Source of the DNA: a virus
DNA: 46,320 bases
Virus record (IMG/VR): IMGVR_UViG_3300045988_108118
Strand: one strand, 5' to 3'
Below are positions 1,035 to 46,320 of this stretch, in pieces; within the stretch, counting starts at the first letter, position 1; every line of letters starts with the position of its first letter. A model generated the notes under the pieces. It had not been told where the DNA came from and did no database searches. It was given only the letters and a program-made list of their open reading frames with translations. The translations under genes and the position numbers were made by a program.

Positions 1035-2021
1035 ATGAAAATTTTCAATGTTGGGGACAAGGCAAGAGTCAGAAAAGACCTGGTTGGCGGTGAAATGTAC
1101 GATACCTGTACTTCTCATACTTGTCTTTGCAACGCAACAATGACACTTTTCGCCGGTTATGTCGTTGTCGTTTGTGGAAAAAATGACATAACTGGTATAA
1201 TGCACTTGCGCAAGGTTGAGGATGAGTTCACGACAACCATGCCCTTTGAATGGTCTGACGATATGCTTGAACCGTTAGAAGTAGAAGAAAAACAACCGCA
1301 CAATAACAAAGCAAAGAAAGGCTTCAATAACAAAGCAAAGAAAGGCTTCAATAACAAAGCAAAGAAAGGCTTCAAGGTAGGAGATAAAGTCGTCATCAAG
1401 ACAACGGTTTCTCGCGGAGAGCATATTGGCCACATAACCATTCAACCTTTCATGTTTGACCAAGCATACAAAAAAAGTGACATGTCGCATAGCCGAAAAA
1501 GAATTGGCACCGTAACTAGAATTGTAAATGACCATGACGACTATTACGCATTTAAAGTTAGTTTTGAGCATGACGATAGAGAGTTTACATGGCCGCGAGA
1601 CGCATTTGAGTTGTACGATGGCGATAATGACAAGCCAAAATCTCCAAAGCATAAAAAGAGCGTAGCTTCCACAGCTGATTACAGTGGTTACACGCCTAAG
1701 TCCGAGTTCTACTGCTACGACTATCTGAATAGACCCGCAACTTTCAGTAAGAACGCCATGAAAAACATCACAAAAATAGAAGTAACTGTTATGTCTGGCG
1801 ATGAAACTGGTTGCTTCTACGGAGTCTACAACGGCAAACATTGGCAATACAAATTCGACACAATGACAACTTCTCGGTTTCAAAGTTATGATGATGGCTC
1901 TTACACGGTAGAGGGTAAAGAGAACATCGAGAAGTGGATAAATTGGAATTATGACCCTGAAAAGGCCATTTACGCAGAGTATTCTATGGAGCGCATGAGA
2001 GCGTTCCGCAAGAGGGAATAA
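1035..2021 (+). CDS. Hypothetical protein with two 'VGDK' SH3/KOW-like modules joined by a repeat linker.
   Basis: 328-aa ORF with RBS aaGGGAG upstream. FNVGDKARVRKDL and FKVGDKVVIKTT modules flank NNKAKKGF x3. Confidence 0.8.
   Translation: MKIFNVGDKARVRKDLVGGEMYDTCTSHTCLCNATMTLFAGYVVVVCGKNDITGIMHLRKVEDEFTTTMPFEWSDDMLEPLEVEEKQPHNNKAKKGFNNKAKKGFNNKAKKGFKVGDKVVIKTTVSRGEHIGHITIQPFMFDQAYKKSDMSHSRKRIGTVTRIVNDHDDYYAFKVSFEHDDREFTWPRDAFELYDGDNDKPKSPKHKKSVASTADYSGYTPKSEFYCYDYLNRPATFSKNAMKNITKIEVTVMSGDETGCFYGVYNGKHWQYKFDTMTTSRFQSYDDGSYTVEGKENIEKWINWNYDPEKAIYAEYSMERMRAFRKRE
1302..1373 (+). repeat. Perfect 24-nt x3 in-frame tandem repeat encoding NNKAKKGF x3.
   Basis: aataacaaagcaaagaaaggcttc is read three times consecutively. 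Confidence 0.95.
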
Positions 2022-2024
2022 CAA

Positions 2025-2429
2025 ATGGACAGTGAACAGAAAAGGCTTTTGGCGAAGCAAAGACACGCATATTACGAAAATTACCGAGAATTATGGAAAG
2101 CGAATGGGCTTTGTCAGCATTGCGGCCATGTGAAAGAAGATGCAAGATACAAGACTTGCGAGAAGTGCCGGAAACGCAGCAGAGAAGCCAATGAGAAGTA
2201 TTCTGAAATCTCTGGTATGCCACGCAGGGATTACGTCAGAATCTTTGCAAAGAATCGTAGAGACAGGCTAACGTCAGAGGGGCTATGCTACGTTTGCGGA
2301 AAAGCCCCGGTAATGCCGGGTACACGGTGGTGCGAGAAATGTTCCGCAGATGCTACAAGGCGAAGAAAGGAGTTAAGAAATGAAAGCGCACATCAGCAGA
2401 CCGACCGGGCAGATGCAGAAAGCGATTGA
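2025..2429 (+). CDS. Double zinc-ribbon protein, function unknown.
   Basis: CQHCGH..CEKCRKR and CYVCGK..CEKCSAD (two CxxC-N-CxxC units); RBS AGAGGGA. Confidence 0.75.
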   Translation: MDSEQKRLLAKQRHAYYENYRELWKANGLCQHCGHVKEDARYKTCEKCRKRSREANEKYSEISGMPRRDYVRIFAKNRRDRLTSEGLCYVCGKAPVMPGTRWCEKCSADATRRRKELRNESAHQQTDRADAESD

Positions 2430-2712
2430 CGAGTATGCTGACAAGAAAATTGCCGAAATTCAGCAAGCAGGAGCGAAAGCGGTCGAAAAAGAGCGATACG
2501 ACATTGCCACAAGAGCAAGTTATCTGTGCTTGCTGGCGTGTTATCAGGCTGGACTTTCCCCTAAAACGCTGCGGCGCATCCAGAAACTTATGACAGGATG
2601 CGTTGCGGAGAAGTATCAAGAGTACAGAAACGACCAGCTTGCAGACCTTTGGGCGCAAGTCACACTGCAAGAAATTGGCGTTGAAGTAGAAGAAACCAAA
2701 GAAAAGCTATGA
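2380..2712 (+). CDS. Hypothetical protein.
   Basis: 110-aa ORF. AAGGAG lies 7 nt upstream of ATG 2380. The ORF overlaps the end of the previous gene. Confidence 0.65.
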   Translation: MKAHISRPTGQMQKAIDEYADKKIAEIQQAGAKAVEKERYDIATRASYLCLLACYQAGLSPKTLRRIQKLMTGCVAEKYQEYRNDQLADLWAQVTLQEIGVEVEETKEKL

Positions 2713-3143
2713 AAGGCGGTAATAACATGAAGATTATTCTCGATGTAGGCGCATATATGCCAACTTATGCTCATGATGCTGATGCTGGCATGGATTTGCG
2801 TACTCCTGTGGCGTTCATCGTACCTGCACATGGCAGCTATACGGTGGACACTGGTGTTCACATCCAGATTCCTGCTGGGCAAGTAGGATTTATTAAGTCT
2901 AAATCTGGGTTGAACGTGAAAGGCGGTTTGACAGCGACAGGGGTCATAGATAGTGGTTTTGCGGGGAGTATCCGCGTAAAGCTGTACAATCACAGCGACG
3001 AGGACTATATGTTCAGCCGTGGCGACAAGATTACGCAACTTGTCTTGCTCTATATCGCAAAGCCGGAGAATGGGTTTGAGGTCGTTGACCATTTCGAGGA
3101 AACGGAGCGCGGAAACAACGGGTTTGGTTCAACAGGGAGATAA
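2709..3143 (+). CDS. dut: dUTP diphosphatase (trimeric dUTPase).
   Basis: Motifs AGMDL, GVIDSGFAGSI and RGNNGFGSTG. ATGA overlap with the upstream stop; an alternative start is at 2727. Confidence 0.95.
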   Translation: MKGGNNMKIILDVGAYMPTYAHDADAGMDLRTPVAFIVPAHGSYTVDTGVHIQIPAGQVGFIKSKSGLNVKGGLTATGVIDSGFAGSIRVKLYNHSDEDYMFSRGDKITQLVLLYIAKPENGFEVVDHFEETERGNNGFGSTGR

Positions 3144-3145
3144 GC

Positions 3146-3409
3146 ATGAATGTAAGCGTAGAACATCGACTCTTGATGGGTCACATGGACGTTGAAAAGA
3201 TTCTGGAACGTAAGCGTCAACTTAGGATTCGCAAGGCAATGTCTAACTACCAGTTAGCAGTACACAATAAGCAGGAATGTGCAAGGGAAACGTTTCTTGA
3301 TGAAGTTCTTGAAATTGAAAGAGATTTTCAAGAAGAACTGTCCGAATACGACAAAATGTTTGATTATGCGCTCTATTTCGAGCGCGAGAAAAAGGAGAAC
3401 GACAAATGA
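3146..3409 (+). CDS. Hypothetical protein.
   Basis: 87-aa ORF with RBS GGGAGA, tightly packed in the operon. Confidence 0.65.
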   Translation: MNVSVEHRLLMGHMDVEKILERKRQLRIRKAMSNYQLAVHNKQECARETFLDEVLEIERDFQEELSEYDKMFDYALYFEREKKENDK

Positions 3410-3804
3410 TTTGCAACATTGCTCTGTCCGAAGAAGAATTTTCCAAGGCTCTTGCCGCTGGCGCTGATGGCATTGCTCTTTTTGAGTACAAAGACGGTAA
3501 GCCGACCGGCAAAAAGGCTGTTTTCAAGCCCGTAGCCGTTGCTAAGGCTATTCACAAGAAAGACGATGCAAAGCAGGAGAAGAAGAGCGACGACATCATT
3601 CCTGCCTACTACGGCGGCGAGGATAACGCATACGAAGCAATCAAGGTAATTAACGCATGGAATCTTGGCTTTGAACTTGGCAACGCGGTAAAATACATTT
3701 GTCGCGCTGGAAAGAAGCCTGGCAATGAATATGTCAACGAACTTAAAAAAGCACGTTTTTACGTTGATTATGAAATTCAAAAATGTAATGGCAGTAAGGA
3801 GTGA
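3406..3804 (+). CDS. DUF3310-family phage protein.
   Basis: YEAIKVINAWNLGFELGNAVKYICRAGKK...ELKKARFYVDYEI matches the DUF3310 signature as I recall it. Confidence 0.8.
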   Translation: MICNIALSEEEFSKALAAGADGIALFEYKDGKPTGKKAVFKPVAVAKAIHKKDDAKQEKKSDDIIPAYYGGEDNAYEAIKVINAWNLGFELGNAVKYICRAGKKPGNEYVNELKKARFYVDYEIQKCNGSKE

Positions 3805-4429
3805 TTTTTTATTGGGATTTCACGGTGGGATACATGGCGTAATAAAGCCAGAGAACAAAGCGGGGGTTAAATTTGTAAGAAAAGACGATTCTGACAGCCG
3901 AAAATACATTTGTATTTGTCCGTTATGTGGCAAGGAATTTTCGATGTTTGCAAACAGTTATTACGTTGACACAAATTCTTGCAACTGCATTGAAGCGGAA
4001 CGTAAGGAAAATGAAAGGCTGCTCGGAGTATATTCAAACATAAAGACACGCTGTTACAACAAAAAATCATCATCGTATAAAAACTACGGTGGCCGTGGGA
4101 TTAAGATGTGTGATGAATGGAAGAACAGCACGCTTGCTTTTATTCGATGGGCAAATGCAAACGGATACGACAAAAATGCTCCAAATGGACAATGCACAAT
4201 AGAAAGGATTGACCACGATGGAGACTATTGCCCGGAGAACTGTTGTTGGGCCAACAGAGTAGAGCAAGCAAATAATAAAAGGTCTAACATAGTTGTTTTT
4301 GGATTGTCTCTGAAATGGTTTTGCGCGCTAAATGGTCTAAACTACAAGTCAGAGCACGGATGGTTCGTAAAACACAACAGAGATGTAAAACTGTTAGAAG
4401 AAAGGTTAAAAAACAAATGTGGTCTATGA
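3788..4429 (+). CDS. HNH-like (HNH_3-type) freestanding homing-endonuclease-like protein; paralog of 19796-20464.
   Basis: TRCYN..YKNYGGRGIKMCDEW...TIERIDHDGDYCPENCCWANRVEQANNKR. Start is uncertain (ATG 3788 or TTG 3812 after AAGGAG 3796-3801); the ORF track gives 3725. Confidence 0.75.
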   Translation: MAVRSDFLLGFHGGIHGVIKPENKAGVKFVRKDDSDSRKYICICPLCGKEFSMFANSYYVDTNSCNCIEAERKENERLLGVYSNIKTRCYNKKSSSYKNYGGRGIKMCDEWKNSTLAFIRWANANGYDKNAPNGQCTIERIDHDGDYCPENCCWANRVEQANNKRSNIVVFGLSLKWFCALNGLNYKSEHGWFVKHNRDVKLLEERLKNKCGL

Positions 4430-4456
4430 TTAAAACAGAGAAAGGCGAGGCTTGAT

Positions 4457-5182
4457 ATGCAAGTTAAACTTATCGCACACTCCATGCCGATTGAGGACTG
4501 CGGAGATTTTGATGGTCTGAAGCTCGGTCAGATGTACAATCCAATTAACATTGTCGAACGGTGCGCAAGCGTCTGCTACGACAGCGAACCGGATTTCGAC
4601 AAGTTCCGTATCGCCAAGGGCTGTGCAAAGACCGGGCACATGAGCGTGTATGAACACGCATATTTCACATTCCACATAAGTGGAATTAGTCGCGCATGTC
4701 TGGCACAGTTGTCAAGACACAGACATATAAGCCTGTCAGTTCGTAGCCAGCGCTATTGCGATGAAAGCGGCAACGGTATTCTTGGCTGTATCATTCCTAA
4801 GGCTTTCAACGACGAGCAGTTTGAAATCGCAATGCAGGCTTACAATGATGAAATCGACATGTATCAAGTCCTGCTGGCAAGCGGAGCAGCAAAAGAAGAT
4901 GCTCGAATGGTGCTGCCTAACGCGATGGAAACTGAATTGTACCTGTCAGCCAACGCGCGAGCGCTGATTGAAGCAAGTCATTTGCGGCTGTGCAACAGAG
5001 CACAAGAGGAAATCAGAACGATGTTCGGCAAGATGAAGAAAGAAGTCGAACAAGTTTCTCCCGAAATCGCAAAGATGATGGTTCCGCAGTGTGAGGTAAA
5101 TCCGAGTTATCCGTTCTGTACAGAACGCGAATCCTGCGGAAGACACAAGACACTGAAAGAGGTGTATAAGAGTGACGTATAA
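4457..5182 (+). CDS. thyX: Flavin-dependent thymidylate synthase ThyX.
   Basis: ThyX signature RHRHISLSVRSQR (RHRxxSxxxxSxR) plus GHMSVYEH. Confidence 0.95.
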   Translation: MQVKLIAHSMPIEDCGDFDGLKLGQMYNPINIVERCASVCYDSEPDFDKFRIAKGCAKTGHMSVYEHAYFTFHISGISRACLAQLSRHRHISLSVRSQRYCDESGNGILGCIIPKAFNDEQFEIAMQAYNDEIDMYQVLLASGAAKEDARMVLPNAMETELYLSANARALIEASHLRLCNRAQEEIRTMFGKMKKEVEQVSPEIAKMMVPQCEVNPSYPFCTERESCGRHKTLKEVYKSDV

Positions 5183-5498
5183 CGCACAAAAAGTCTCGAA
5201 ATACTGTGACGAAATGTCCGATAAATACGGAGCTGGTGAATGTGAGAAGCACTGCACCGTAGCAGACCTCTGCGAGCGCTGTGATGGTGATTTTGACAGC
5301 CTGATTGATAATGATACCACATACGCGGACAGAGCCGTAGAAAGACTCGACAAGGCCCACGCAGACGATGTGGCGAATAGCGTTCTGGTGGAGTATTACA
5401 AGAAAGAACTGGAAAAACGCGACCAAGAGATTGTCGCACTGAAAGAGATGAACAAGATTCTGGCAGAGAGCATCAGAAACTTGTCAAACAAGGGGTGA
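5172..5498 (+). CDS. Hypothetical protein (Cys cluster, C-terminal coiled coil).
   Basis: GTG start 7 nt after GAGGTG; 108-aa ORF. Confidence 0.65.
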   Translation: MTYNAQKVSKYCDEMSDKYGAGECEKHCTVADLCERCDGDFDSLIDNDTTYADRAVERLDKAHADDVANSVLVEYYKKELEKRDQEIVALKEMNKILAESIRNLSNKG

Positions 5499-5502
5499 AA
5501 CA

Positions 5503-5733
5503 ATGAAAGCTGTAATTCTTGCAATGCTGTTTATTTCTCTATATTTTGCAATCGGAATTGCGGTTACGTGGTTCGTCACGCAGCTTGTCACCGGGGACAA
5601 ATACAACGAACTCACATACCTTACCGTTGCTCTTATTTGGCCTGTCATGGTTTTCGTGTGTATCATCGCTGTGATTGTCGGATACGTTTTTAAATTTGCA
5701 TTTTGGTTGCAAAAGAAGTTCAAAAAACATTAA
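5503..5733 (+). CDS. Small membrane protein (two TM helices).
   Basis: Translation MKAVILAMLFISLYFAIGIAVTWFV...ALIWPVMVFVCIIAVIVGYVF; RBS GGGGTG. Confidence 0.7.
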   Translation: MKAVILAMLFISLYFAIGIAVTWFVTQLVTGDKYNELTYLTVALIWPVMVFVCIIAVIVGYVFKFAFWLQKKFKKH

Positions 5734-5734
5734 A

Positions 5735-5799
5735 TTTGCAACAAAAGTCCATTGAAATTGCTTGCCGAGTATGGTAAGATATAAGTGTTCCAAGGGAAC
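5735..5799 (+). promoter_or_regulatory. Promoter P2 for the tRNA cluster: TTTGCAACA box, TTGAAA-17-TAAGAT, then the GTTCCAAGGGAAC palindrome at the start region.
   Basis: -35 at 5752-5757, -10 at 5775-5780, palindrome at 5787-5799. Same layout as 960-1007 and, on the minus strand, 12573-12660. Confidence 0.65.
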
Positions 5800-6025
5800 A
5801 AACCAGATAGCCATTTGAACGATTGCCTTCTGGGGATGAACTGCTGTGTGAGTTCTACCGACTGCCGCCGAGAATCTTAAAGCACAGATTTCCTACTGCT
5901 GGGAATACTCCGATGCCATGAGCAAGGAACGGCGGATTCTGCCGACATAGCGACTGTTCGCGCTCGCTTTCAATTTTACGGCAACTTACAGAGCAGCCGT
6001 AAAAGAGAGTTGGTCGGCATTATAT

Positions 6026-6100
6026 TGCGGATTAGCCAAGTGGTAAGGCATGGGACTTTGACTCCCTGATTCGCTGGTTCGAGTCCAGCATTCGCAACCA
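6026..6100 (+). tRNA. tRNA-Gln (anticodon TTG), CCA encoded.
   Basis: Manual cloverleaf: acceptor TGCGGAT/ATTCGCA, D arm GCCAAGTGGTAAGGC, anticodon loop CTTTGAC, T arm GCTGG-TTCGAGT-CCAGC. It aligns along its full length with the E. coli tRNA-Gln layout. Confidence 0.9.
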
Positions 6101-6119
6101 CGTTTACTTGTCCATAAGT

Positions 6120-6147
6120 AACCCTCCTATTCAGCGCGAGGGTTTTC
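6120..6147 (+). terminator. Hairpin plus U-run after tRNA-Gln; possible partial terminator or processing signal.
   Basis: AACCCTC-N11-GAGGGTT followed by TTTCGTGTTCATTTT. Confidence 0.35.
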
Positions 6148-6238
6148 GTGTTCATTTTACCTCGTGCGCGAGCATTTTATACCTCCGCCCCGATATGCGT
6201 ATTCAGTCCGTGGGGTTCAAGACGCAGCGGACTATTAT

Positions 6239-6313
6239 GGCTCTTTAGTTCAACGGTAGAACACCCGGCTCATAACCGGGCAGTCGATGGGTCGACACCA
6301 TCAGGAGCCACCA
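6239..6313 (+). tRNA. tRNA with CAT anticodon (elongator Met or Ile2-type; not initiator-like), CCA encoded.
   Basis: Acceptor GGCTCTT/AGGAGCC, D arm GTTC-AACGGTA-GAAC, anticodon arm CCCGG-CTCATAA-CCGGG, T arm GATGG-GTCGACA-CCATC. The G1-C72 pair argues against an initiator. Confidence 0.9.
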
Positions 6314-6429
6314 CCGGGTTCTCCATGCCCGAATTCTCCTTTATACGTTCTCCAAAGTTTGCCGCAGACTTATAGCAGTTGAGGTTTAGGCATTTCCCTT
6401 AACTGTGAGTTAGAAGCGGCACTTTTTAT

Positions 6430-6505
6430 GCTGGATTATCTCAACTGGTAGAGAACCTGTTTTGTAATCAGGGGGTTCGGGGTTCAAGTCCTCGATTCAG
6501 CACCA
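6430..6505 (+). tRNA. tRNA-Thr (anticodon TGT), CCA encoded.
   Basis: Acceptor GCTGGAT/ATTCAGC, D arm TCTC-AACTGGTA-GAGA, anticodon arm CCTGT-TTTGTAA-TCAGG (one T-T mismatch at 31-39), T arm CGGGG-TTCAAGT-CCTCG. Confidence 0.8.
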
Positions 6506-7434: not shown

Positions 7435-7448
7435 TATGCAGATAGGGC

Positions 7449-7572
7449 TTGATTTTTGCCGCAAACAGTGATAGAATATAGACGGGTGACAGGGTTTGAC
7501 GCGCTGTTTGTCATAAAGCAGAACTCCTTTTCTCGAAAAAGGCTCTTGCGAGTAATCGCAGGGGTCTTTTTT
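7449..7572 (+). ncRNA. Candidate small RNA unit 1: promoter plus an approximately 90-nt transcript plus terminator.
   Basis: TTGATT (7449-7454), 17-nt spacer, TGaTAGAAT (-10 at 7472-7477). Hairpins TGACA..TGTCA and CCTTTT..AAAAGG. Terminal TGCGA-gtaa-TCGCA followed by GGGGTCTTTTTT. No RBS and no credible ORF. Confidence 0.45.
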
Positions 7573-7573
7573 G

Positions 7574-7684
7574 TTGCAATCAGAGCAGAATCGTGGTACA
7601 ATGGAGATGCTAACAATCCTAGTTTGGGATTTTTCCAACTCAAAGGCTTTTGCGGATAAACCCGTGGAAGCCTTTTTTGTTTTC
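7574..7684 (+). ncRNA. Candidate small RNA unit 2: promoter plus an approximately 70-nt transcript plus terminator.
   Basis: TTGCAA (7574-7579), 17-nt spacer, TGgTACAAT (-10 at 7597-7602). Terminator AAAGGCTT-N18-AAGCCTTT followed by TTTTGTTTT (7642-7684). Confidence 0.5.
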
Positions 7685-7738
7685 GCGCGAATTTTTGAAA
7701 TGACAATAGGGAAGAAGCTAAATTCGAGTTAAGCGAGC

Positions 7739-9016: not shown

Positions 9017-9154
9017 TATAAAATATAAAACCCCCTTAAAATGTTTTTGTTTTACTAGATTCTATAATGGATTATAACACACTCTATTCATTTACTACAT
9101 AGACAATTATCTCATAGTTATAGACTATAGTTGCAATTAGTATAATATTATATA

Positions 9155-9340
9155 ATTGCCAGTTTTTCCCAGTTTTCCCACATTTTGACAACGTGTCACA
9201 TTACATTGCATCGCATCACATTTTCCACCACATTTACATATTTACCATATTTTACCATTTATCCCACTTTTTCCCACTATTCCCTATTTTTTCCAGTATT
9301 GCCAGTTTTTCCCATCTTTGCCAGCCATATCCATTTTCCA
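9155..9340 (+). repeat. Array of T-tract/CCCA motifs phased at about 10 bp; predicted intrinsically bent DNA.
   Basis: T-runs start at 9163, 9173, 9183, 9221, 9233, 9241, 9250, 9258, 9268, 9287, 9306, 9317 and 9334. Exact 17-mer attgccagtttttccca occurs at 9155-9171 and 9298-9314. Confidence 0.8.
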
Positions 9341-9356
9341 GTCAATATAATAATTA

Positions 9357-9490
9357 CTATACGATATACGATTGTCTCTATACGATACGATTCGACAACT
9401 CCCCTTCCCTGCTACGATTTACGATACAGCAAAAGCGCTTGCACCACTACGATACAAGCGCCCTGCTATATTCACACACACGATAGAGAC
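9357..9490 (+). repeat. Iteron-like array: 8 same-orientation copies of ACGAT(A/T).
   Basis: Copies at 9361, 9368, 9382, 9387, 9414, 9421, 9449 and 9480. CTATACGATA occurs twice (9357-9366 and 9378-9387). Confidence 0.75.
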
Positions 9491-9493
9491 TAC

Positions 9494-11273: not shown

Positions 11274-12533
11274 TTAGAACACTCCCTTCCACGCGTCAGC
11301 GTATTTGTTATTGACGGTCAAGCGCTCGCTAATCATATGCGCAGCGTCTTTGCTCAAGCCCTTTGCAATGCACTGTTTGATACAGCTTGCAGTGTCCAGC
11401 CCGACCGACTCCATAGCGGTGACGTTCTGAACGCAGCGGTACGAAAGAATCATATTCACGCCAACAGCCTTGCAAGCCTTGCGCAAGTCGTAAATAAAAG
11501 CAATCAAGTCTTTGTTACCGTTGGTTACTGCATTGAAAATATCTTTGCTGTAATCAATATCGACCACCGCGAAACGGTCAAGCGTTGCGGCGTCCAGCTG
11601 GTAACGTCCAGTATACTCAGCGTCCGCACCAGTGCCGTAAGTATTGCCCGCGCAGATAAATCGGCAATTTTCGTTTAACTCGACTTTACCGCAAGGAAAG
11701 TCAAAGTATCTGTTTGCAATCGCTGCATTGAGCGCCACAAGCACTTCGGGAATACTTGCGTCCATTTCATCCAGGAAGAACACGCCACCATTGCAGCAGA
11801 AGTCGTAAAACTGTGTCTTGCTGTAATGTCCATTAGCGTCTACAAAGCCGGTGAACTTGTAAATATCCTGCACAGCACCACTAAAATAAAAATCCATGTT
11901 CAGCGCACTTGCGGCACTCTTTGCAATGCTGCTTTTACCAGTACCAGCCGGGCCGCTCATGAATACAGGAACGTTCGCGGTGACGTATTTCAAGATAGTT
12001 TCAAACATTTCATGCTGGACGCCACCAGCAGATTTTTTGCTACCGTCTGGCAACTTTACTACAATTTCCTTTTGCGGCAACTTGCCATACTTTTCAAAGA
12101 TGAAAGTGTCAAGGTCGGCGCACACTTTGTTGAAGACTTGCTCTTCCTTGATTTGCGCCAGCATTGCCAGCGCTGCGCCTGCTGCCGTGAAGTCTGCCGC
12201 CTGATTTGTGGGAATTGCTGCGCTGTTCGGCTTGTGTGCGTCTGCATTGCGGTCAGATTTTGCCGCGCCATGTTCTTCACGCCATTCCGCAATAGCGTCG
12301 TTCAGCTCTTTCAAACAGACAGTCAAGTCATCCTTGACACCGCGCTCAATGACTTCGCCATTGCAAGTGTAGCGGTATTCGTTGGGAACTTTCTCAAACA
12401 TGCGTCCGTCACGGCTGCACATAATGCGCTCAACATACTGTTCCGCACTGTTACCGTTGAGGGCTGCGTCCTTGATGATAGACTTGTCAATGCTATAAGT
12501 GTTCCGCTTGTTTCTGTAAAGAATAATTTCCAT
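11274..12533 (-). CDS. AAA+ ATPase of the AAA_5/MoxR/CobS-like type, with an N-terminal extension of about 190 aa.
   Basis: Walker A is SGPAGTGKSS and Walker B is VFFLDEMD. C-terminal region CAGNTYGTGADAEYTGRYQLDAATLDRF. Confidence 0.9.
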   Translation of the reverse strand: MEIILYRNKRNTYSIDKSIIKDAALNGNSAEQYVERIMCSRDGRMFEKVPNEYRYTCNGEVIERGVKDDLTVCLKELNDAIAEWREEHGAAKSDRNADAHKPNSAAIPTNQAADFTAAGAALAMLAQIKEEQVFNKVCADLDTFIFEKYGKLPQKEIVVKLPDGSKKSAGGVQHEMFETILKYVTANVPVFMSGPAGTGKSSIAKSAASALNMDFYFSGAVQDIYKFTGFVDANGHYSKTQFYDFCCNGGVFFLDEMDASIPEVLVALNAAIANRYFDFPCGKVELNENCRFICAGNTYGTGADAEYTGRYQLDAATLDRFAVVDIDYSKDIFNAVTNGNKDLIAFIYDLRKACKAVGVNMILSYRCVQNVTAMESVGLDTASCIKQCIAKGLSKDAAHMISERLTVNNKYADAWKGVF

Positions 12534-12572
12534 GATTTTTCTCCTATCGTGTGTGTTGTGTGTGTTTTTTGT

Positions 12573-12660
12573 GTTCCCTTGGAACGTCTATATCATATCA
12601 CACCGCAACACGCTTGTCCACAGGATATTTGTTGCAAAACATGCACTTTTGTTGCAACTA
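12573..12660 (-). promoter_or_regulatory. Promoter P3 of the phage-specific class, driving the AAA ATPase operon.
   Basis: On the minus strand: GTTGCAACAAAAGTGCAT .. TTTGCAACAAATATCC .. TGGACA (12615-12620), 17-nt spacer, TATGAT (12592-12597), then GTTCCAAGGGAAC (12573-12585), then a CA-repeat 5' UTR. Confidence 0.6.
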
Positions 12661-12694
12661 TAAGTTAGGCGCATTTTGCCCATATTTTCAAGAT

Positions 12695-12719
12695 GTATTA
12701 TATATATTATATATAATAC
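12695..12719. repeat. 25-nt perfect AT palindrome with 12-bp arms.
   Basis: GTATTATATATA-t-TATATATAATAC, immediately followed by CCCCTACCCCACTACCC. Confidence 0.95.
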
Positions 12720-12764
12720 CCCTACCCCACTACCCATTGTGTTTATATGTTTTAGACTCGTTAC

Positions 12765-13418: not shown

Positions 13419-14057
13419 TCAAATTTCTTTCGATTCTCCCTCGATTGTTTTGCCGGACTTGTAATCTTCCAGCATCTTGTCGAGTTCGGCATTGCTTGCA
13501 GTTGCCACGGGATTGTTTGCGGTGGAAATCTGAATCTCTTGTTTTGCAGACCAGCCACCGCCGTTGTTCATCATTCCAACATACAGCAGGGGCGGCATCT
13601 TGCCGGACAATCCTAATTGCGATTTAATTGCCATGAAATCATTCTTAGCTTTCTGCACAAGTTCAGACGCAGACACATAGATTTCATCACCGTTGCCGTC
13701 AATCACGGATTCTTTGCGCATCTTTGTCGATTGAATATAATCCATCTGCGAGCGAGTCATGCCGACGAAACTACACCAACCCAGATAATCTGGAATTAGA
13801 TAAGTGTCGCTGTCGTAAATGTACTTTAAGTATTCAATCTCCCAGTCGAGAACTTTTTGCGCAGTGACTTGCGATGGCTGTTTCACTGTGATTGCTAGAC
13901 CTTGCAGCAGCGCACGGATGTTGCCTTTATCTTCCACAGATTCCGGCGGTGTCTTCCCTTGCATGAAACGTTGTTTGGCTAACACCAAGTTACCATCTTC
14001 ATTGCGATAGACCTGTGTTTCCTTGGGCTTGTTTTTTGCCCCTTTAGTCCTCGCCAT
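13419..14057 (-). CDS. Terminase-small-subunit-like DNA-binding protein.
   Basis: MARTKGAKNKPKE...IPDYLGWCSFVGMTRSQMDYI...LLYVGMMNNGGGWSAKQEIQI follows the TerS pattern seen in Bacillota phages. The ORF-track start at 14087 is less likely. Confidence 0.6.
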   Translation of the reverse strand: MARTKGAKNKPKETQVYRNEDGNLVLAKQRFMQGKTPPESVEDKGNIRALLQGLAITVKQPSQVTAQKVLDWEIEYLKYIYDSDTYLIPDYLGWCSFVGMTRSQMDYIQSTKMRKESVIDGNGDEIYVSASELVQKAKNDFMAIKSQLGLSGKMPPLLYVGMMNNGGGWSAKQEIQISTANNPVATASNAELDKMLEDYKSGKTIEGESKEI

Positions 14058-14682
14058 CGTATGCCACCGCCTTTGCGATTTCGCCATAGATTCGTTTCAT
14101 GTCAAGCATGTAAGTCGCTTTCAGGCTCGTTCTGACCTGCTCAATTCGCTGTCTGGAAAGCCCAAGCTCTCTTGCAATGTCAGACTGATTCGCGTTTGGA
14201 TTCTCTACGAGCGCCTTTGCGATTCTCTGCCATGAGCCATTGCCGTGCTTGGGGAAAACATTATGTTCAAACGCCCATGGAATAAACTTGCACTCGCAGA
14301 TGCACTCTTTGCTGCGAAGAAAAGAATCCAAGTCTTTAGTCCACATGATTCGCTTTCCGCAATGTCTGCACTTTAACTCGTACTTAACAGCGTACAGAAT
14401 CCCATCCGACTTGCACAGATTCGTTTTAATATCCTCGCATCCCCAGCCATGCGGTTTCAGCTTTAGGTTCGCTTTTCGTAGCATAGCTGCTTCTTCGATT
14501 TCCCTGCGCTCACTTTTGAGCATAATATCCCCAGTGCGATTAAGACGATTATAGCAATTACGGCACAGATAGCCAAATTGCTTGTCTTTATACCATGCCT
14601 GTTGAATTTCTTTTCCATGCACGATTACAGGACTTGTCTTAGCGCCGCAGTAACCGCACGAGTGTCGTTTCATTGTACCCAT
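14044..14682 (-). CDS. Zinc-finger protein with a C-terminal HTH (sigma region-4/LuxR-like).
   Basis: CGYCGA..CRNC and CRHCGK..CICEC. C-terminal region NQSDIARELGLSRQRIEQV. Confidence 0.75.
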   Translation of the reverse strand: MGTMKRHSCGYCGAKTSPVIVHGKEIQQAWYKDKQFGYLCRNCYNRLNRTGDIMLKSERREIEEAAMLRKANLKLKPHGWGCEDIKTNLCKSDGILYAVKYELKCRHCGKRIMWTKDLDSFLRSKECICECKFIPWAFEHNVFPKHGNGSWQRIAKALVENPNANQSDIARELGLSRQRIEQVRTSLKATYMLDMKRIYGEIAKAVAYDGED

Positions 14683-19795: not shown

Positions 19796-20464
19796 TTATT
19801 TAATTAAATTGTCCAGCTTTAACTTTTTGATTACCTCGTCAACGTCCCAATTTTTTCGATAAAATCTATCGTACAGTGCAGACCTGCTCATTCCTATTTT
19901 ATTCGCAAATTCGGGAATTGTATAAATATTTCCGTTGTATTCAAATTTTCTTACGGTTCTTTTGTTCCTGTTCTGCTCCGCAATAGAAATAAATCTGCAA
20001 TTTTCTGGACAATAATTACCATTTACGTCAATTCTGTCTATTGTTGTGACACCACGGGCTGCAATTTCGTCATATCCGTTTGCAAGTGCCCACGCCCTAA
20101 ACGATTCGTAATCGTTCCATTCATCGCACATTTTAATTCCTCTGCCGCCGTAATCGCAGAATCCTTTATTCCTTTTGTTATAGCATCTTGTCTTTATCGA
20201 AGCCCAAACCCTATAAAGTCTTTCGTGCGTGTGCCCATGTTTGTAATTTCTGGCACTTGTTACTTTACTCGAAACCTCTCTTTGCAGGCATCCGCAACTC
20301 TTTGTATGTCCATCTTTCAAGTGGCTTTTCCCAACTATCACTTTGCGACCACAATCGCATTGGCAAAGCCAAAAAGTCTGGCATTGTTTTGCAGAAAAAT
20401 GGTGATAACTAATAGCAACAAGTCTACCATACCGATTTCCAGAAATGTCCTCTCTGTTTTTCAC
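19796..20464 (-). CDS. HNH-like (HNH_3-type) homing-endonuclease-like protein; paralog of 3788-4429.
   Basis: TRCYNKRNKGFCDYGGRGIKMCDEW...TIDRIDVNGNYCPENCRFISIAEQNRNKR. Confidence 0.75.
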   Translation of the reverse strand: MKNREDISGNRYGRLVAISYHHFSAKQCQTFWLCQCDCGRKVIVGKSHLKDGHTKSCGCLQREVSSKVTSARNYKHGHTHERLYRVWASIKTRCYNKRNKGFCDYGGRGIKMCDEWNDYESFRAWALANGYDEIAARGVTTIDRIDVNGNYCPENCRFISIAEQNRNKRTVRKFEYNGNIYTIPEFANKIGMSRSALYDRFYRKNWDVDEVIKKLKLDNLIK

Positions 20465-22587: not shown

Positions 22588-22616
22588 TTGCAACCATCGA
22601 GCGCGTGTGGTATAAT
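22588..22616 (+). promoter_or_regulatory. Early-right promoter, divergent from and back to back with 22526-22554.
   Basis: TTGCAA (22588-22593), 17-nt spacer, TGgTATAAT (-10 at 22611-22616). Confidence 0.8.
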
Positions 22617-24081: not shown

Positions 24082-24482
24082 AATACGAAAAAAAGAGTTT
24101 CACGTTTGAAGAACTTGCTCAAATGGCCTACAAGGGGGCTAGGAGCGAGTTTAAGACGCTTTTGCGCGGGTCTGAACAAAGTACCTATCTATCGCTTCGA
24201 TACCTTTACAGGCTCTACCAGACGGGTGGAATCTCAAAGGAAGAAGCAGGCAAGACCAAAGCGCAGATTGCGAGAAGATACGAGAAAGACCGGCTGCGCG
24301 AAGAACAACTTGAAAGCTCAATCAAGGCGTTTGCGCAAGTCGTACTTAGGACGGCAAAGGCCAATGAAGACTACCGCAGAGAAAGAACGCTAGACAATGC
24401 TGACAAGCTGTGCGAAGCAATTGACGGCGTTATGGTTCAGTCGAATATCGCCGAAACAAAGGGTCTTGCAGATGAAGTGTGA
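24078..24482 (+). CDS. Hypothetical protein (134 aa).
   Basis: ORF, translationally coupled to its neighbours. Confidence 0.7.
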   Translation: MKYEKKSFTFEELAQMAYKGARSEFKTLLRGSEQSTYLSLRYLYRLYQTGGISKEEAGKTKAQIARRYEKDRLREEQLESSIKAFAQVVLRTAKANEDYRRERTLDNADKLCEAIDGVMVQSNIAETKGLADEV

Positions 24483-24696
24483 GAAGTGCGGCAGTGATAA
24501 CGTCTACGTCAAGGATAACGTGAACGTGCCGCCAGAGAACACGATTTACCGTAAGCGGATTTGCAAAGATTGCGGTCATCAGTTCCTTACGATTGAATTT
24601 ATCATAGAAAAAGACGATGGTCTTGCGCTGCGCGAATGGAATAAATGGCACAGAGATGGACATAAAAAAGCCACGAAGCATAAACCTCGTGGCTAA
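24472..24696 (+). CDS. NrdR-N-terminal-like zinc-ribbon protein (74 aa).
   Basis: MKCEKCGSDNVYVKD....YRKRICKDCGHQFLTIEF. Confidence 0.7.
   Translation: MKCEKCGSDNVYVKDNVNVPPENTIYRKRICKDCGHQFLTIEFIIEKDDGLALREWNKWHRDGHKKATKHKPRG
24664..24694 (-). terminator. Terminator of the late (minus) block, overlapping the 3' end of the convergent plus-strand gene.
   Basis: AGCCACGA-N10-TCGTGGCT, with TTTTTT following on the minus strand. Confidence 0.7.
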
Positions 24697-24703
24697 GTGT
24701 GAG

Positions 24704-25255
24704 TTAATCTTTGAATTTCTTGTGATACTTGTCTTGAATCTCGGTCAGGTAAACCATGTCGTAATCGCAACATTCGAGTTCGATGAACAGCTTTTCGGCA
24801 AACTTTAATTCGTCTGAAACATCGTGAATCAGTTTCTTGCCGATAAAATCTGCGTAGTCGATTTCTCCAAGTTCAAGCAATTCCCTGTACATTTGAGCGT
24901 AGAACTGGCGAGTGTCATTTTCCCAGTTCACCCACTTTGTCATTGCATCTCTGACAGCACGTCTTTTTGTCGTTGCATCGACATCTTTACGAACGTAGTT
25001 GTACCAGTTTGCAGGGATTTGGCTTGTGACATTTATCTCAGACTTAGGAATCAGCTTGTTTTCGTGGTTGACATAAAAGCTGTCAACTTCAACCATTGCA
25101 CGGGTTTCATCGGCAAAATGATGCTCGTGCATACGCTTAAATCCGTGGAGATTCAGAAAATCAAAATATTGGCGCATCTGGTCGTGGAACATCGTTCCCT
25201 CGATTTGGTGCGCTTTTATTTTGGCAAAGACTTCCTCGACCGTCATCGCAATCAC
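24704..25255 (-). CDS. Hypothetical helical protein, possibly ferritin/Dps-like.
   Basis: 183 aa. LNLHGFKRMHEHHFADETRAMVEVDSFY resembles a ferritin-like helix pair, but the match is weak. Confidence 0.75.
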   Translation of the reverse strand: MIAMTVEEVFAKIKAHQIEGTMFHDQMRQYFDFLNLHGFKRMHEHHFADETRAMVEVDSFYVNHENKLIPKSEINVTSQIPANWYNYVRKDVDATTKRRAVRDAMTKWVNWENDTRQFYAQMYRELLELGEIDYADFIGKKLIHDVSDELKFAEKLFIELECCDYDMVYLTEIQDKYHKKFKD

Positions 25256-25692
25256 TCCTTAACGACTTCAACTGCCACGTTGGAAGTTGTAACAGCCTGA
25301 CCAGTCACGATTACTTGCAAACGGCTGGAAACCTGACCGCGATACACGCGAACAGGAGCGGTGAAAGCAATACCAACGGAATCAGCTGCGGCGGCAGTCA
25401 CAGTTTGTGTTGCGCCAGATACGGCTTGACCGTCCTGATACAGAGTTACCGTCACAGGGCCAGCGGCAGACGCTACAAGCGTTGTATTGACCGAGACAGA
25501 ATAGTATCCAGCCGCATCATTGCAAACGCAAGGACAGCCAGCAGAGCCGATGATAACGCCATTGTTGCCAAGGCGAATAGCGTTGCCGTATTGTCTGACA
25601 GTGTTTGTCAGCGGCAAAGCATCGCCAACAGCCAGAGCGGTTGGTTGTAGCCCATAGGTGAGCTGTACATTGGCATTGGCATCGTCTAACAC
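25252..25692 (-). CDS. Hypothetical beta-rich protein (BclA-C/C1q-like?).
   Basis: 146 aa, Ala/Val/Thr/Gly-rich. GTG start. Confidence 0.7.
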   Translation of the reverse strand: MLDDANANVQLTYGLQPTALAVGDALPLTNTVRQYGNAIRLGNNGVIIGSAGCPCVCNDAAGYYSVSVNTTLVASAAGPVTVTLYQDGQAVSGATQTVTAAAADSVGIAFTAPVRVYRGQVSSRLQVIVTGQAVTTSNVAVEVVKE

Positions 25693-25710
25693 CTCATTTC
25701 TGATTAAATT

Positions 25711-25757
25711 ATAAAAAGAAAAAGCCCTATCGAGAAGTCCCGATAAGGCTTTTATTT
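25711..25757 (-). terminator. Hairpin terminator (possibly bidirectional).
   Basis: AGCCCTATCG-N8-CGATAAGGCT, flanked by an A-run upstream and TTTATTT downstream on the plus strand. Confidence 0.65.
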
Positions 25758-25766
25758 GTCTATTAT

Positions 25767-26003
25767 TCAGATGTGTTTGAACAACTGTTCTTCGGCTTTA
25801 TAGGTGATAGCTTTGATTCGTTGGACGGAGTAGCCAAATTCTTCTGAAAGCTGGTCAAATGTTCGCTCGTCAATCAGGCGGCGCTTTAGAACAGCTCTTG
25901 GCGTTTCTCCCCTTACCCATAAATCAATCAATTCGGATAACTCTTTGTTAGAAATATCCTCACTTACCACTCTTTTTGCCATTGCTCCGATTCTTTCTGA
26001 CAC
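25767..26003 (-). CDS. Sigma-70 region-4-like HTH protein; candidate late-gene regulator.
   Basis: RRLIDERTFDQLSEEFGYSVQRIKAITYKAEEQL. Confidence 0.65.
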   Translation of the reverse strand: MSERIGAMAKRVVSEDISNKELSELIDLWVRGETPRAVLKRRLIDERTFDQLSEEFGYSVQRIKAITYKAEEQLFKHI

Positions 26004-26069
26004 GGGTTCTTGTCTTAGTCCGCGTTGTCGTGGTAACTGTTTTAATGCGTACTTTCTGCTTTGCCATTG

Positions 26070-26384
26070 TTAATCACCACCCGCCGTAACATCAAGGCTT
26101 GCATCGCCATCAGCAGTTTCTTGTGTTGCTTCAACTGTTTGCGTCGTAGTGGTTGTAACTGTTTCCGATGACTGCACTTGGGATTGTGCTTCATAGAACG
26201 GCCACGCAACATTTGTTGCAACAAGCAGGACAATAAGCAGAATGATAACCGAAAAGTATCGCTTCTCACGCTTCTCGTGACGCATTTCGCAAGATTCAAA
26301 CACAAACTGCGAAATGTAATTATCCGTTCCGCTGGTAGGGTCTTTCACCATGTCCAGCTTTGTTTCGACATCCATTTGGCTCAC
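26070..26384 (-). CDS. Single-pass membrane protein in the lysis cassette.
   Basis: TM helix YFSVIILLIVLLVATNVAW, followed by a Thr/Gln-rich tail. Confidence 0.65.
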   Translation of the reverse strand: MSQMDVETKLDMVKDPTSGTDNYISQFVFESCEMRHEKREKRYFSVIILLIVLLVATNVAWPFYEAQSQVQSSETVTTTTTQTVEATQETADGDASLDVTAGGD

Positions 26385-26387
26385 ACC

Positions 26388-26606
26388 TTAATCATCAAAC
26401 AGCTTATCCTTGATTTCTTCAAGGTTTTTTCGGATTTCTGGAAGTTCCTTTGAAAGGGTTTCAATTATGCTGTACAGCTTATCCTCACGTTCCTTGGAAG
26501 TCTTAACGACCCACCAAAGCAGGATAAAAAAGGCCACTACAACGCATCCAAGGATTCCGTAATTAACATACAGGTTTTGGACAACTTCGGTGGGCATAAC
26601 TGTCAC
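26388..26606 (-). CDS. BhlA/UviB-like holin-like peptide.
   Basis: GILGCVVVAFFILLWWVVKTSKEREDKL pattern. Confidence 0.7.
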   Translation of the reverse strand: MTVMPTEVVQNLYVNYGILGCVVVAFFILLWWVVKTSKEREDKLYSIIETLSKELPEIRKNLEEIKDKLFDD

Positions 26607-26836
26607 ACCTCGCTCAACTCTGCATTGTCGTATCCGAGAGACTTTAACTTGAACTTAAAGTTCTCAGCATTTTCGCGGCTTGCGAATCGAACAAAGACTT
26701 TGTACCCTTTCGCTTTGGGAATATCTTCTACTGGCGCAACTTCGTCAGTAATTTTGTCAGTAGAAGCAGCAATCGGCTTTTCATCACCGATTTGCTTTTG
26801 GTTTGCAATCTCTGCTTTCTTAGTGCGCATATTCAA
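26603..26836 (-). CDS. Small protein with a SPOR-like C-terminus.
   Basis: GYKVFVRFASRENAENFKFKLKSLGYDNAEL. Confidence 0.55.
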   Translation of the reverse strand: MNMRTKKAEIANQKQIGDEKPIAASTDKITDEVAPVEDIPKAKGYKVFVRFASRENAENFKFKLKSLGYDNAELSEV

Positions 26837-26845
26837 ACACCCCTA

Positions 26846-27118
26846 TTATTTATTAGAGGACTTGAAAATGCCCTCATACAGTGCGACAGCAGTTGCGCCA
26901 GAGCCAATGCCCATTGCACACGCGGTAAACGCATCTGTGGCAGGGTAAATGGCCGGGTAAACAACCCAAGCGGCAATGCTAAGAATTGCACCAACAACCA
27001 TACAGATGACAGGAATCCACTTGTTATCTGCCGAGGTCTTTGTCTTATACGCATACGCGATAAGCTCAACAATGGCGGTAATAGATGCCATCGAAGCAAC
27101 ATTCATGAAAATATCCAC
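26846..27118 (-). CDS. Holin (three TM helices).
   Basis: GTG start 7 nt after AAGAGGTG. Three hydrophobic helices and a charged C-terminus. Confidence 0.75.
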   Translation of the reverse strand: MDIFMNVASMASITAIVELIAYAYKTKTSADNKWIPVICMVVGAILSIAAWVVYPAIYPATDAFTACAMGIGSGATAVALYEGIFKSSNK

Positions 27119-43801: not shown

Positions 43802-44065
43802 ATGGAATTTAAGCCACTCACAGCCAAAGAACTTGAATTTCTGGGCTATGGCTCACACACTACAATCAGCAAATACGTCGCCATGGGGATGCCAAGACAC
43901 GGCGTAAGAGGGCGGTACTGGTTCATTGAAGAAGAAGTACGCAACTGGATTCTATGCCGTGGAGAACCGATTTACATTGCTTGCCCGTGCTGCGGGAAAA
44001 TGATTAAAGTGCCGAAAGAGGTGATTCTAAATGCTAAACACTCCGAAGATGGCGAGAACGCCTGA
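43802..44065 (+). CDS. Excisionase/MerR-type HTH plus zinc-ribbon protein; candidate small terminase or regulator.
   Basis: LTAKELEFLGYGSHTTISKYVAMGMP....YWFIEEEVRNWI; CPCCGK. Confidence 0.7.
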   Translation: MEFKPLTAKELEFLGYGSHTTISKYVAMGMPRHGVRGRYWFIEEEVRNWILCRGEPIYIACPCCGKMIKVPKEVILNAKHSEDGENA

Positions 44066-45919: not shown

Positions 45920-46320
45920 ATGATTATGCGCACCGAGAAAAACAAAAATTACACAGTGATGGGCAACTATCATCTGCGGGACAAAGAATTGTCTCTAAAA
46001 GCCAAGGGATTGTTGTCTATTATGTTGAGTTTGCCTGACGGCTGGAACTTCTCAACACAGGGGCTTACTACGCTTTCAAGTGACGGAGAGACAGCAATTC
46101 GGTCTACACTCAAAGAATTGGAGCAAAAAGGCTACCTAAAGCGCAATAAAGTACGTATTAACGGTAAAATTGTTGATTGGGAGTATGTTGTCTACGAGCA
46201 AAAACATCCATGTGTTCCAGTTGATGAAAGTCCAGTTGATGAAAACGTACATGTGAATAATCGCACCCAATTAAATACTAAAGAAATAAATACTAAAGAA
46301 ATAAATAATTTCTCAACATC
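45920..46320 (+). CDS. 5' part of the wHTH replication-initiator-like gene; continues at base 25 of the window.
   Basis: MIMRTEKNKNYTVMGNYHLRDKELSLKAKGLLSIMLSLPDGWNFSTQGLTTLSSDGETAIRSTLKELEQKGYLKR. The ORF is open to the window end. Confidence 0.8.
   Translation, partial: MIMRTEKNKNYTVMGNYHLRDKELSLKAKGLLSIMLSLPDGWNFSTQGLTTLSSDGETAIRSTLKELEQKGYLKRNKVRINGKIVDWEYVVYEQKHPCVPVDESPVDENVHVNNRTQLNTKEINTKEINNFST
46273..46302 (+). repeat. 15-nt x2 in-frame tandem duplication (NTKEI x2).
   Basis: aaatactaaagaaat is read twice, followed by a partial third copy. Confidence 0.9.

Follow-up and report, generated by a model that had tools for sequence, protein, structure and literature searches.

Class II activator sites, such as those of CRP and FNR at −41.5, of the Mu proteins Mor and C at about −51 to −33, and of lambda cI at PRM, adjoin or overlap the −35 hexamer and are centred at −41 to −44. 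The middle promoters of T4 have a MotA box (a/tTTGCTTtA) near −30, which is used together with AsiA, and the UP element, known from E. coli and B. subtilis rrn promoters, lies at about −59 to −38. Host regulators can also have sites at phage promoters, as with the 0A boxes for Spo0A at promoters of the Bacillus phages phi29 and Nf (PMC2731898). At the RNA level, 5′-terminal stem-loops serve as mRNA stabilisers, for which E. coli ompA and papA and the B. subtilis aprE leader are given as examples in PMC3997798 (its refs 93-95 and 109).

Here we describe a phage genome in which three promoters share an upstream box, T(T)TGCAACA-N3-GTCCAT(T), that would be a protein-binding cis-element set against the −35 hexamer of sigma-A-type promoters with TGn-extended −10 elements. 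By analogy, its closest documented counterparts appear to be the host Spo0A boxes at phi29 and Nf promoters. In both cases an apparently virulent phage would carry host-regulator sites at several of its own sigma-A promoters (PMC2731898), and phage transcription would be coupled to host physiology, the factor in the present case being putative. The two differ in that the 0A box is TGTCGAA, whereas the present box has no CG core and stands in one fixed register against −35. Spo0A itself was rejected as the reader: the segment closest to a 0A box, TGTCCAT, agrees at 5/7 positions and lacks the CG, and the phage copies read CGTCCAT or AGTCCAT.

With class II sites, the box shares its location (it abuts or overlaps −35, with its centre near −43), a frequently weak −35, and the option of further sites some two helical turns upstream. 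It differs from them in being asymmetric (TGCAACA versus GTCCAT, with no clean dyad), and some of the box promoters have strong cores. The T4 middle promoters are similar in forming a subclass with an extra box (TTTGC is common to both) and a sigma-70 −10 that is often TGn-extended. However, the MotA box replaces −35 at about −30, whereas the present box is centred near −43, upstream of a −35 that is retained, and a T4-type MotA promoter was rejected for this geometry; a further difference is that host chromosomes have the present box too. No MotA or AsiA homologue was found among the ∼50 of ∼75 ORFs of the window (the whole stretch analysed, 46,320 nucleotides) that were scanned against Pfam or PHROGs.

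The phage genome and its three box promoters

Bases 1-24 of the window are an exact repeat of bases 46297-46320, and it is therefore a circularly assembled genome of ∼46.3 kb, that is, a circular or circularly permuted genome of ∼46,296 bp in which the terminal repeat is assembly overlap. The same phage is found in many public assemblies, including those from human gut, as contigs of 44-47 kb and never in contigs of >50 kb. Among cultured phages, no close relative was found at the DNA level (one 148-bp match only, with 76.5% identity), and the terminase and ATPase have only 27-44% identity with those of gut, Clostridium, Eggerthella, Enterococcus and Staphylococcus phages. On the plus strand, the terminase (44031-45749) runs over the junction into a nucleotide-metabolism operon (1035-5733; dUTPase, nucleotide kinase, HNH, ThyX), and three tRNAs come next. 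On the minus strand, replication-type genes extend from 22669 to ∼8200 (DnaB, exonuclease and others, then an AAA_5 ATPase and a DUF7192 protein), and long ORFs of 549, 624, 920 and 598 aa lie between 43756 and 24704. The latter are presumably the structural and lysis module, in which the domain scan covered only the small ORFs at 24704-27102, a holin-like ORF among them.

Several other features of the genome were seen along the way. Paralogous HNH endonuclease genes lie in opposite orientation at 3725-4429 (+) and 19796-20464 (−), and stretches of them are 84% identical (4085-4179 versus 20061-20152). A long intergenic region at 9017-9493 has arrays of TGGGAAAAAC and TGGCAAT-type repeats (9155-9325) and of ATCGTAT repeats (∼9380-9440), and looks like an iteron-type replication origin. 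At 7440-7690, after the tRNA cluster, there are two extended −10 promoters on the plus strand, with their −10 elements at 7472 and 7597. Downstream of the second, which is kept in relatives (at 6173 in L015), there is a listed terminator hairpin (7642-7675), and downstream of the first an apparent hairpin and T-run, read by eye, at ∼7540-7572. They may give two transcripts of ∼70-90 nt, which would be candidate phage small RNAs.

The three box promoters, P1, P2 and P3, were all located where the preliminary description had placed them, with every quoted string and with the same genes downstream (the 328-aa ORF, the tRNA cluster and the AAA_5 ATPase). At P1 (plus strand), the upstream box TTTGCAACATTCGTCCATT occupies 962-980, with the core TGCAACA-N3-GTCCAT (TGCAACATTCGTCCAT) at 964-979 and TTTGCAACA at 962-970. 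The core promoter (979-1007) consists of a −35 TTCCAC (979-984), a 17-nt spacer ending in TGg, and a −10 TAGAAT (1002-1007). Its predicted start is near A1014, ahead of the 328-aa ORF (1035-2021, +) and the dUTPase, nucleotide kinase, HNH and ThyX genes. Within the 328-aa ORF, positions 1301-1375 hold three exact overlapping 27-nt copies with a 24-nt period (CAATAACAAAGCAAAGAAAGGCTTCAA), and the middle part of the ORF is its least conserved segment among relatives.

P2 (plus strand) has the box TTTGCAACAAAAGTCCATT at 5735-5753 (core at 5737-5752) and a core promoter at 5752-5780, with −35 TTGAAA (5752-5757), a 17-nt spacer, TGg and −10 TAAGAT (5775-5780), and the predicted start is G5787. P3 (minus strand) has two boxes. 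The distal one, GTTGCAACAAAAGTGCAT (12641-12658, with TGCAACAAAAGTGCAT at 12656-12641), lies 20 nt upstream of the proximal one, TTTGCAACAAATATCCTGT (12620-12638, with TGCAACAAATATCCTG at 12636-12621), whose right half is degenerate. The P3 core promoter (12592-12620) has −35 TGGACA (12620-12615), a 17-nt spacer, TGa and −10 TATGAT (12597-12592). Its predicted start is G12585, and the AAA_5 ATPase gene (11274-12533, −) lies downstream. About 110 nt upstream of the P3 −10 there is an AT-rich TATATAATATATATAATA tract (12690-12720, −), which is kept in relatives despite differing flanks.

All three promoters have the sigma-A/sigma-70 form, with 17-nt spacers and TGn-extended −10 elements, and in every case the −35 hexamer begins with the last T of the box. 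Counted from a start placed 7 nt past the −10, the conserved 17-bp box covers roughly −52 to −35, in the phage and the host examples alike. In the window, TGCAACA-N3-GTCCAT with ≤1 mismatch has three matches against 0.04 expected, and none of 100 shuffles reaches three. The degenerate form of the box is preceded by GCA in only four copies in the genome, all within the P1-P3 regions (two of them at P3). By itself, TTTGCAACA is not enriched (36 matches against 27 expected at ≤1 mismatch) and was dropped as a motif, only the composite box being enriched. A possible fourth box with two mismatches (9120-9135, −) was also dropped, as it is 21 nt out of register and is not conserved in relatives.

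The seven plain phage promoters from which the box promoters were said to differ were all found again, and none has the box (0/7). Counted from the sequences, agreement of the −35 with TTGACA averages ∼4/6 for the box promoters versus ∼5.3/6 for the plain ones. The proposal of a separate promoter class is borne out by this enrichment and by conservation at P1 and P2: the data support a distinct subclass, real and conserved, that is defined by the upstream box.

The ATPase, ThyX, the 328-aa protein and the box were used as queries to retrieve relatives, which comprise ∼14 genomes of 44-47 kb from one IMG/VR sample and 15 human-gut metagenome contigs. They fall into two genome types, the window type (L001, L014 and L039; 88-97% protein identity) and a second type with ∼82% identity in the ATPase. 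In the P1 operon, proteins of the second type have 34-85% identity overall with those of the window, and several have only 34-50%. At the orthologous P1 and P2 sites the core is 14/14 identical in both genome types; the spacers are unrelated, and the N3 and the flanks upstream have also changed. One P1 from the relatives reads TGCAACATCTGTCCATTCACA-17-TATAAT, and the P2 of the second type reads TTTGCAACAAAAGTCCATTGCAA-17-TGcTATAAT, with a near-consensus core (TTGCAA-17-TGcTATAAT). Also at P2, TTTGCAACAAAAGTCCATTG is invariant in 10/10 aligned genomes and in 15 human-gut metagenome copies. We consider this conservation at P1 and P2, as judged from the alignments, to be a clear phylogenetic footprint. 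The preliminary description had named absence of the box from relatives that keep the genes as evidence against it; the P1/P2 box was present in every genome examined.

P3 has changed more. In the ∼82% relatives only GAGACAAATGTCCAT (a degenerate box) and AGTGCAT are kept, the latter being all that is kept of the distal box, and a 10-nt insertion displaces the box from a consensus TTGACA. The near-consensus P2 core and the degenerate, displaced P3 box of these relatives indicate that control is not uniform across the promoters, and such a P2 core should be able to do without an activator, which counts against activation as its mode of control. In phages with a more distant ThyX (L023-L038, 57-64% identity), neither the box nor a tRNA lies within 3.5 kb, and a distant-ATPase profile search and a metagenome scan with the core of the leader RNA described below returned only the same two genome types.

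The 13-nt palindrome and the leader RNA

The palindrome GTTCCAAGGGAAC occurs exactly at 5787-5799 (+) and 12573-12585 (−), and with ≤2 mismatches there are three matches in the window against 0.84 expected. It had been described as lying 5-6 nt after the −10; it is indeed identical at the two promoters, and the distance is exactly 6 nt both times. Its stem begins at the seventh nucleotide after the −10 at P2 and P3, which is the predicted +1, and so the transcripts would start with a stem-loop, GTTCC-AAG-GGAAC, at the 5′ end of the P2 transcript (5787-5799, +; in window-type genomes only) and of the ATPase-operon mRNA (12573-12585, −). The palindrome had been counted as part of the promoter class, and in this respect the earlier view has to be given up, as P1 has no palindrome, and neither does P2 in the ∼82% relatives.

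The stem GTTCC/GGAAC recurs at orthologous P3 sites around loops of 3, 4 or 5 nt (AAG, AAGC, CAGAC, CATAC), and in L001 the sequence is CTCC-AAAC-GGAG, with one compensatory pair (U:A to C:G). All five P3 variants fold, with minimum free energies of −4.8 to −6.9 kcal/mol. The covariation amounts to one event in a short stem (5 bp, about −5 kcal/mol). A loop of 3-5 nt on a kept stem, together with a compensatory pair, argues for an RNA stem-loop over an operator, and this pattern indicates that the palindrome is probably a 5′-terminal RNA feature separate from the promoter class.

Of the two functions first suggested for the palindrome, an operator or a protective 5′ stem-loop, the structure of the second is thus borne out by the P3 pattern, and the first is at odds with the varying loop. 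As an operator, GTTCCAAGGGAAC would be bound as DNA by a dimeric regulator at +1 to +13, for which it could be cited that two promoters have an identical 13-mer, equally far from the −10. A dimer operator needs fixed spacing between its half-sites, however, and here the spacing varies (3, 4 and 5 nt), the half-sites change with compensation among orthologous P3 sites (CTCC/GGAG), and the palindrome is missing from P1 and, in most relatives, from P2. In addition, a homologous core cassette, gTGTGcTATrATaaAGACAyTCCAA, is common to P2 and P3, so that duplication or gene conversion, together with selection on structure, best accounts for the exact identity of the 13-mers. We therefore regard an operator as highly improbable.

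Two known elements were also compared with the palindrome and rejected. In the LexA (Cheo) box, GAAC-N4-GTTC, the arms are reversed relative to GTTCC-N3-GGAAC, whose spacing is moreover variable, and an intrinsic terminator would require a G+C-rich stem and then a T run, of which there is none after the palindrome on the sense strand. A weak terminator-like site is present on the minus strand at 5800-5786, with no gene there to terminate, and none is listed on the opposite (+) strand at P3 (12572-12586).

In the stem-loop reading, the known mRNA stabilisers are the natural comparison. As in those cases, P3 gives a short hairpin at the extreme 5′ end, its structure kept over its sequence, and after it come a leader without structure and a strong ribosome-binding site. 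Its stem, unlike those of ompA, papA and aprE, has only 5 bp, and an effect on half-life would here be an argument by analogy; on that basis, the most likely role of the hairpin is to protect the RNA from 5′-end-dependent decay. The leader of the AAA_5 ATPase gene (12534-12572, −) is CA-rich, with a GGAG ribosome-binding site. Its CA-repeat portion (ACACAAAAAACACACACAACACACAC; 12537-12572, −) varies in length and is CA-rich in all relatives, and it is possibly translation-enhancing.

The P2 transcript is predicted to comprise a conserved, structured leader RNA of ∼240 nt (5787-6025, +; ∼180 nt in relatives, with an orthologue at 4822-5001 in L015) and the tRNAs tRNA-Gln(UUG), tRNA-Met(CAU) and tRNA-Thr(UGU) (6026-6505, +). 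The leader has an invariant core (GCCATTTGAACGATTGC ... CTGCTGTGTGAGTTC ... TCTTAAAGCACAGATTTCCT ... TGGGAATAC) and variable inserted hairpins, and its 3′ stem, which has compensatory pairs, ends 2 nt before the tRNA. A search of Rfam with 5781-6025 gave no match even at E up to 5, and only the three tRNAs match in the region. This leader may be a new phage structured RNA that is released by RNase P cleavage. In the ∼82% relatives, the 5′ end of the P2 transcript (UCC/CCAACAG) pairs into the leader RNA instead of forming the hairpin, and a paired 5′ end would then be a theme common to the P2 and P3 transcripts.

The box in bacterial chromosomes and the factor that may read it

A scan of 185,579 bacterial and archaeal genomes for the box with a −10 at the right distance gave 115 exact matches. 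Only ∼10 of these are convincing host sites, and most others resemble chance occurrences in coding sequence. Six Oscillospirales genomes (L072, L082, L108, L115, L119 and L153) have the box upstream of pgi (glucose-6-phosphate isomerase, PF00342), and two (L090 and L112) have it upstream of a galE-like epimerase gene. Single cases precede other genes in L127 and in L100, the latter with tandem boxes 21 nt apart, and two contigs labelled viral (L041 and L050) have the box upstream of a DUF4143 ATPase gene. At the host sites, the spacing from the box to −35 and −10 is the same as in the phage.

When the six pgi promoters are aligned, ATGGA, GTTGCA, TTTGCAACAACTGTCCATTG and TATACT are invariant, the spacer is only partly conserved and the upstream sequence is unconserved. 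The boxes here are two and inverted, and form a 38-bp palindrome, ATGGA-N5-GTTGCA-N6-TGCAAC-N5-TCCAT, which is invariant in the six genomes (L072:4784-4940 and orthologues) and resembles an operator, so far without a name, for a gene central to glycolysis. No homologue of a window protein was found in the box-bearing host loci, which are thus not relatives of the phage, nor in L041 or L050. No regulator gene was found beside the host pgi or galE-like promoters, and ∼184 kb of Clostridia-class loci, mostly from Oscillospirales, contained no further copies of the box at ≤3 mismatches.

These sites bear on two earlier proposals, that the class is specific to the phage and that it is read with the help of a phage factor. 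The first fails, as the same box with the same geometry is present in Oscillospirales pgi and galE-like promoters, and the second loses ground, as conservation in chromosomal promoters, in the same register, makes a factor of the host lineage the simpler reading. We put at about even the chances that the box is the site of a putative host-lineage transcription factor that the phage has adopted. This factor would bind the box at about −43, next to sigma region 4, in the manner of a class II activator. The phage copies front three modules, the nucleotide-metabolism operon, the leader RNA and tRNA cluster, and the AAA ATPase operon, and through them these modules would be tied to a host regulator. 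We infer positive control from the activator-like position and the weaker −35 hexamers. The two conserved blocks of the box are about one helical turn apart, and the extra copies lie 20-21 bp upstream, in tandem (P3 and L100) or inverted (pgi). Both an LTTR-like reading (TGCA-N7-TSCA) and a direct-repeat, response-regulator reading fit this geometry.

Were the box read instead by a DNA-binding protein of the phage, its host sites would be those of a homologue in the host or of some unrelated factor. There are two main candidates. A 78-aa protein (25767-26003, −) matches Sigma70_r4 (E = 9e-5) and is present in 12/12 related IMG/VR contigs recovered, with 95-99% identity, but this high identity is partly regional, as nucleotide identity is ∼90% over 25624-27003. 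A 212-aa zinc-finger protein (14044-14682, −) has a C-terminal, region-4-like HTH whose recognition helix, SRQR[IV]xQVR, is kept even though the protein has only ∼36% identity between genome types. The TTGCAA in the left half of the box, which the plain promoters at 22588 and 43738 also use as their −35, would suit such a protein as well. Yet the box is also kept at pgi and galE-like promoters in the chromosomes of several bacterial genera, which have no need of a phage protein, and the lack of window-protein homologues in the box-bearing host loci and in L041/L050 also counts against a phage reader. The host sites make a purely phage factor less economical, and we consider it unlikely.

The divergence of the 212-aa protein between types (∼36% identity) is itself marked when compared with its neighbours (75-80%). 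A 99-aa protein (24397-24696, +), with an NrdR-like zinc ribbon and no ATP-cone detected, is a further candidate for a phage factor; a relative was found in the closest related genome only, and it sits in a phage that encodes its own nucleotide-metabolism operon.

If the box were an operator, a host or phage repressor at −52 to −35 would block sigma region 4 or the alpha C-terminal domain, and the three modules would be delayed or silenced. The overlap of the box with the first base of −35 would suit this, as would the near-consensus cores of P2 and P3 in the ∼82% relatives, which would be active without help, and the operator-like layout of the two inverted boxes in the 38-bp pgi palindrome. 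There is also a precedent in the host Spo0A sites that repress phi29 promoters (PMC2731898). On the other hand, box promoters have, on average, a weaker −35 hexamer than plain ones, which fits activation better, and tight repression of a housekeeping gene such as pgi would be unusual. Repression seems to us a somewhat unlikely function for the box.

It is also conceivable, if improbable, that no dedicated factor is involved, and that the box is a lineage-specific UP-like or extended −35 element that host RNA polymerase contacts (through the alpha C-terminal domain or sigma A) and that strengthens the promoters. The box lies where an UP element would (about −59 to −38), is moderately A/T-rich, and keeps a fixed register to −35 in phage and host. 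Its invariant positions are nevertheless largely G/C (TGCAAC and GTCC, in phages and hosts), for which a UP element proper was rejected. Further points against such an element are that the strongest plain phage promoters do without the box, that the Clostridia-class loci held no further copies, and that inverted or tandem copies 20-21 bp upstream are typical of factor sites.

Some other known elements were compared with the box and set aside. A sigma-54 promoter (TGGCAC-N5-TTGCW) would have to be read from the reverse complement, AATGGAC-N3-TGTTGCA, which gives GG-N9-GC, not GG-N10-GC, and it would also fire away from the downstream genes. The cre site, the motifs of CodY, Rex, TnrA/GlnR, WalR, PhoP, CtsR and SpoIIID and the NrdR box were rejected by eye.

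Taking the host-lineage factor as the reader, we infer from the match of the box motif that the phage infects the same lineage as the box-bearing Oscillospirales (Acutalibacteraceae/Ruminococcaceae type). More tentatively, and as something possible rather than probable, the box may mark a regulon, not described so far, that includes pgi and a galE-like gene in uncultured Oscillospirales of the gut. The regulator would then be used by this widespread ∼46-kb gut phage to gate three modules on the carbohydrate or energy state of its host.

The first reading of this locus is thus corrected twice, in that the box is not specific to the phage and the palindrome appears to be an RNA feature outside the promoter class. 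What emerges is a cis-element, conserved but as yet without a name, at central-metabolism promoters of Oscillospirales, gut bacteria that are dominant and have been little studied, and a testable case in which an uncultured gut phage wires several of its operons to an apparent host regulatory site. A host lineage is suggested for the phage without CRISPR or prophage evidence, and if the regulon is real, shared cis-elements of this kind could help to assign hosts to uncultured phages.
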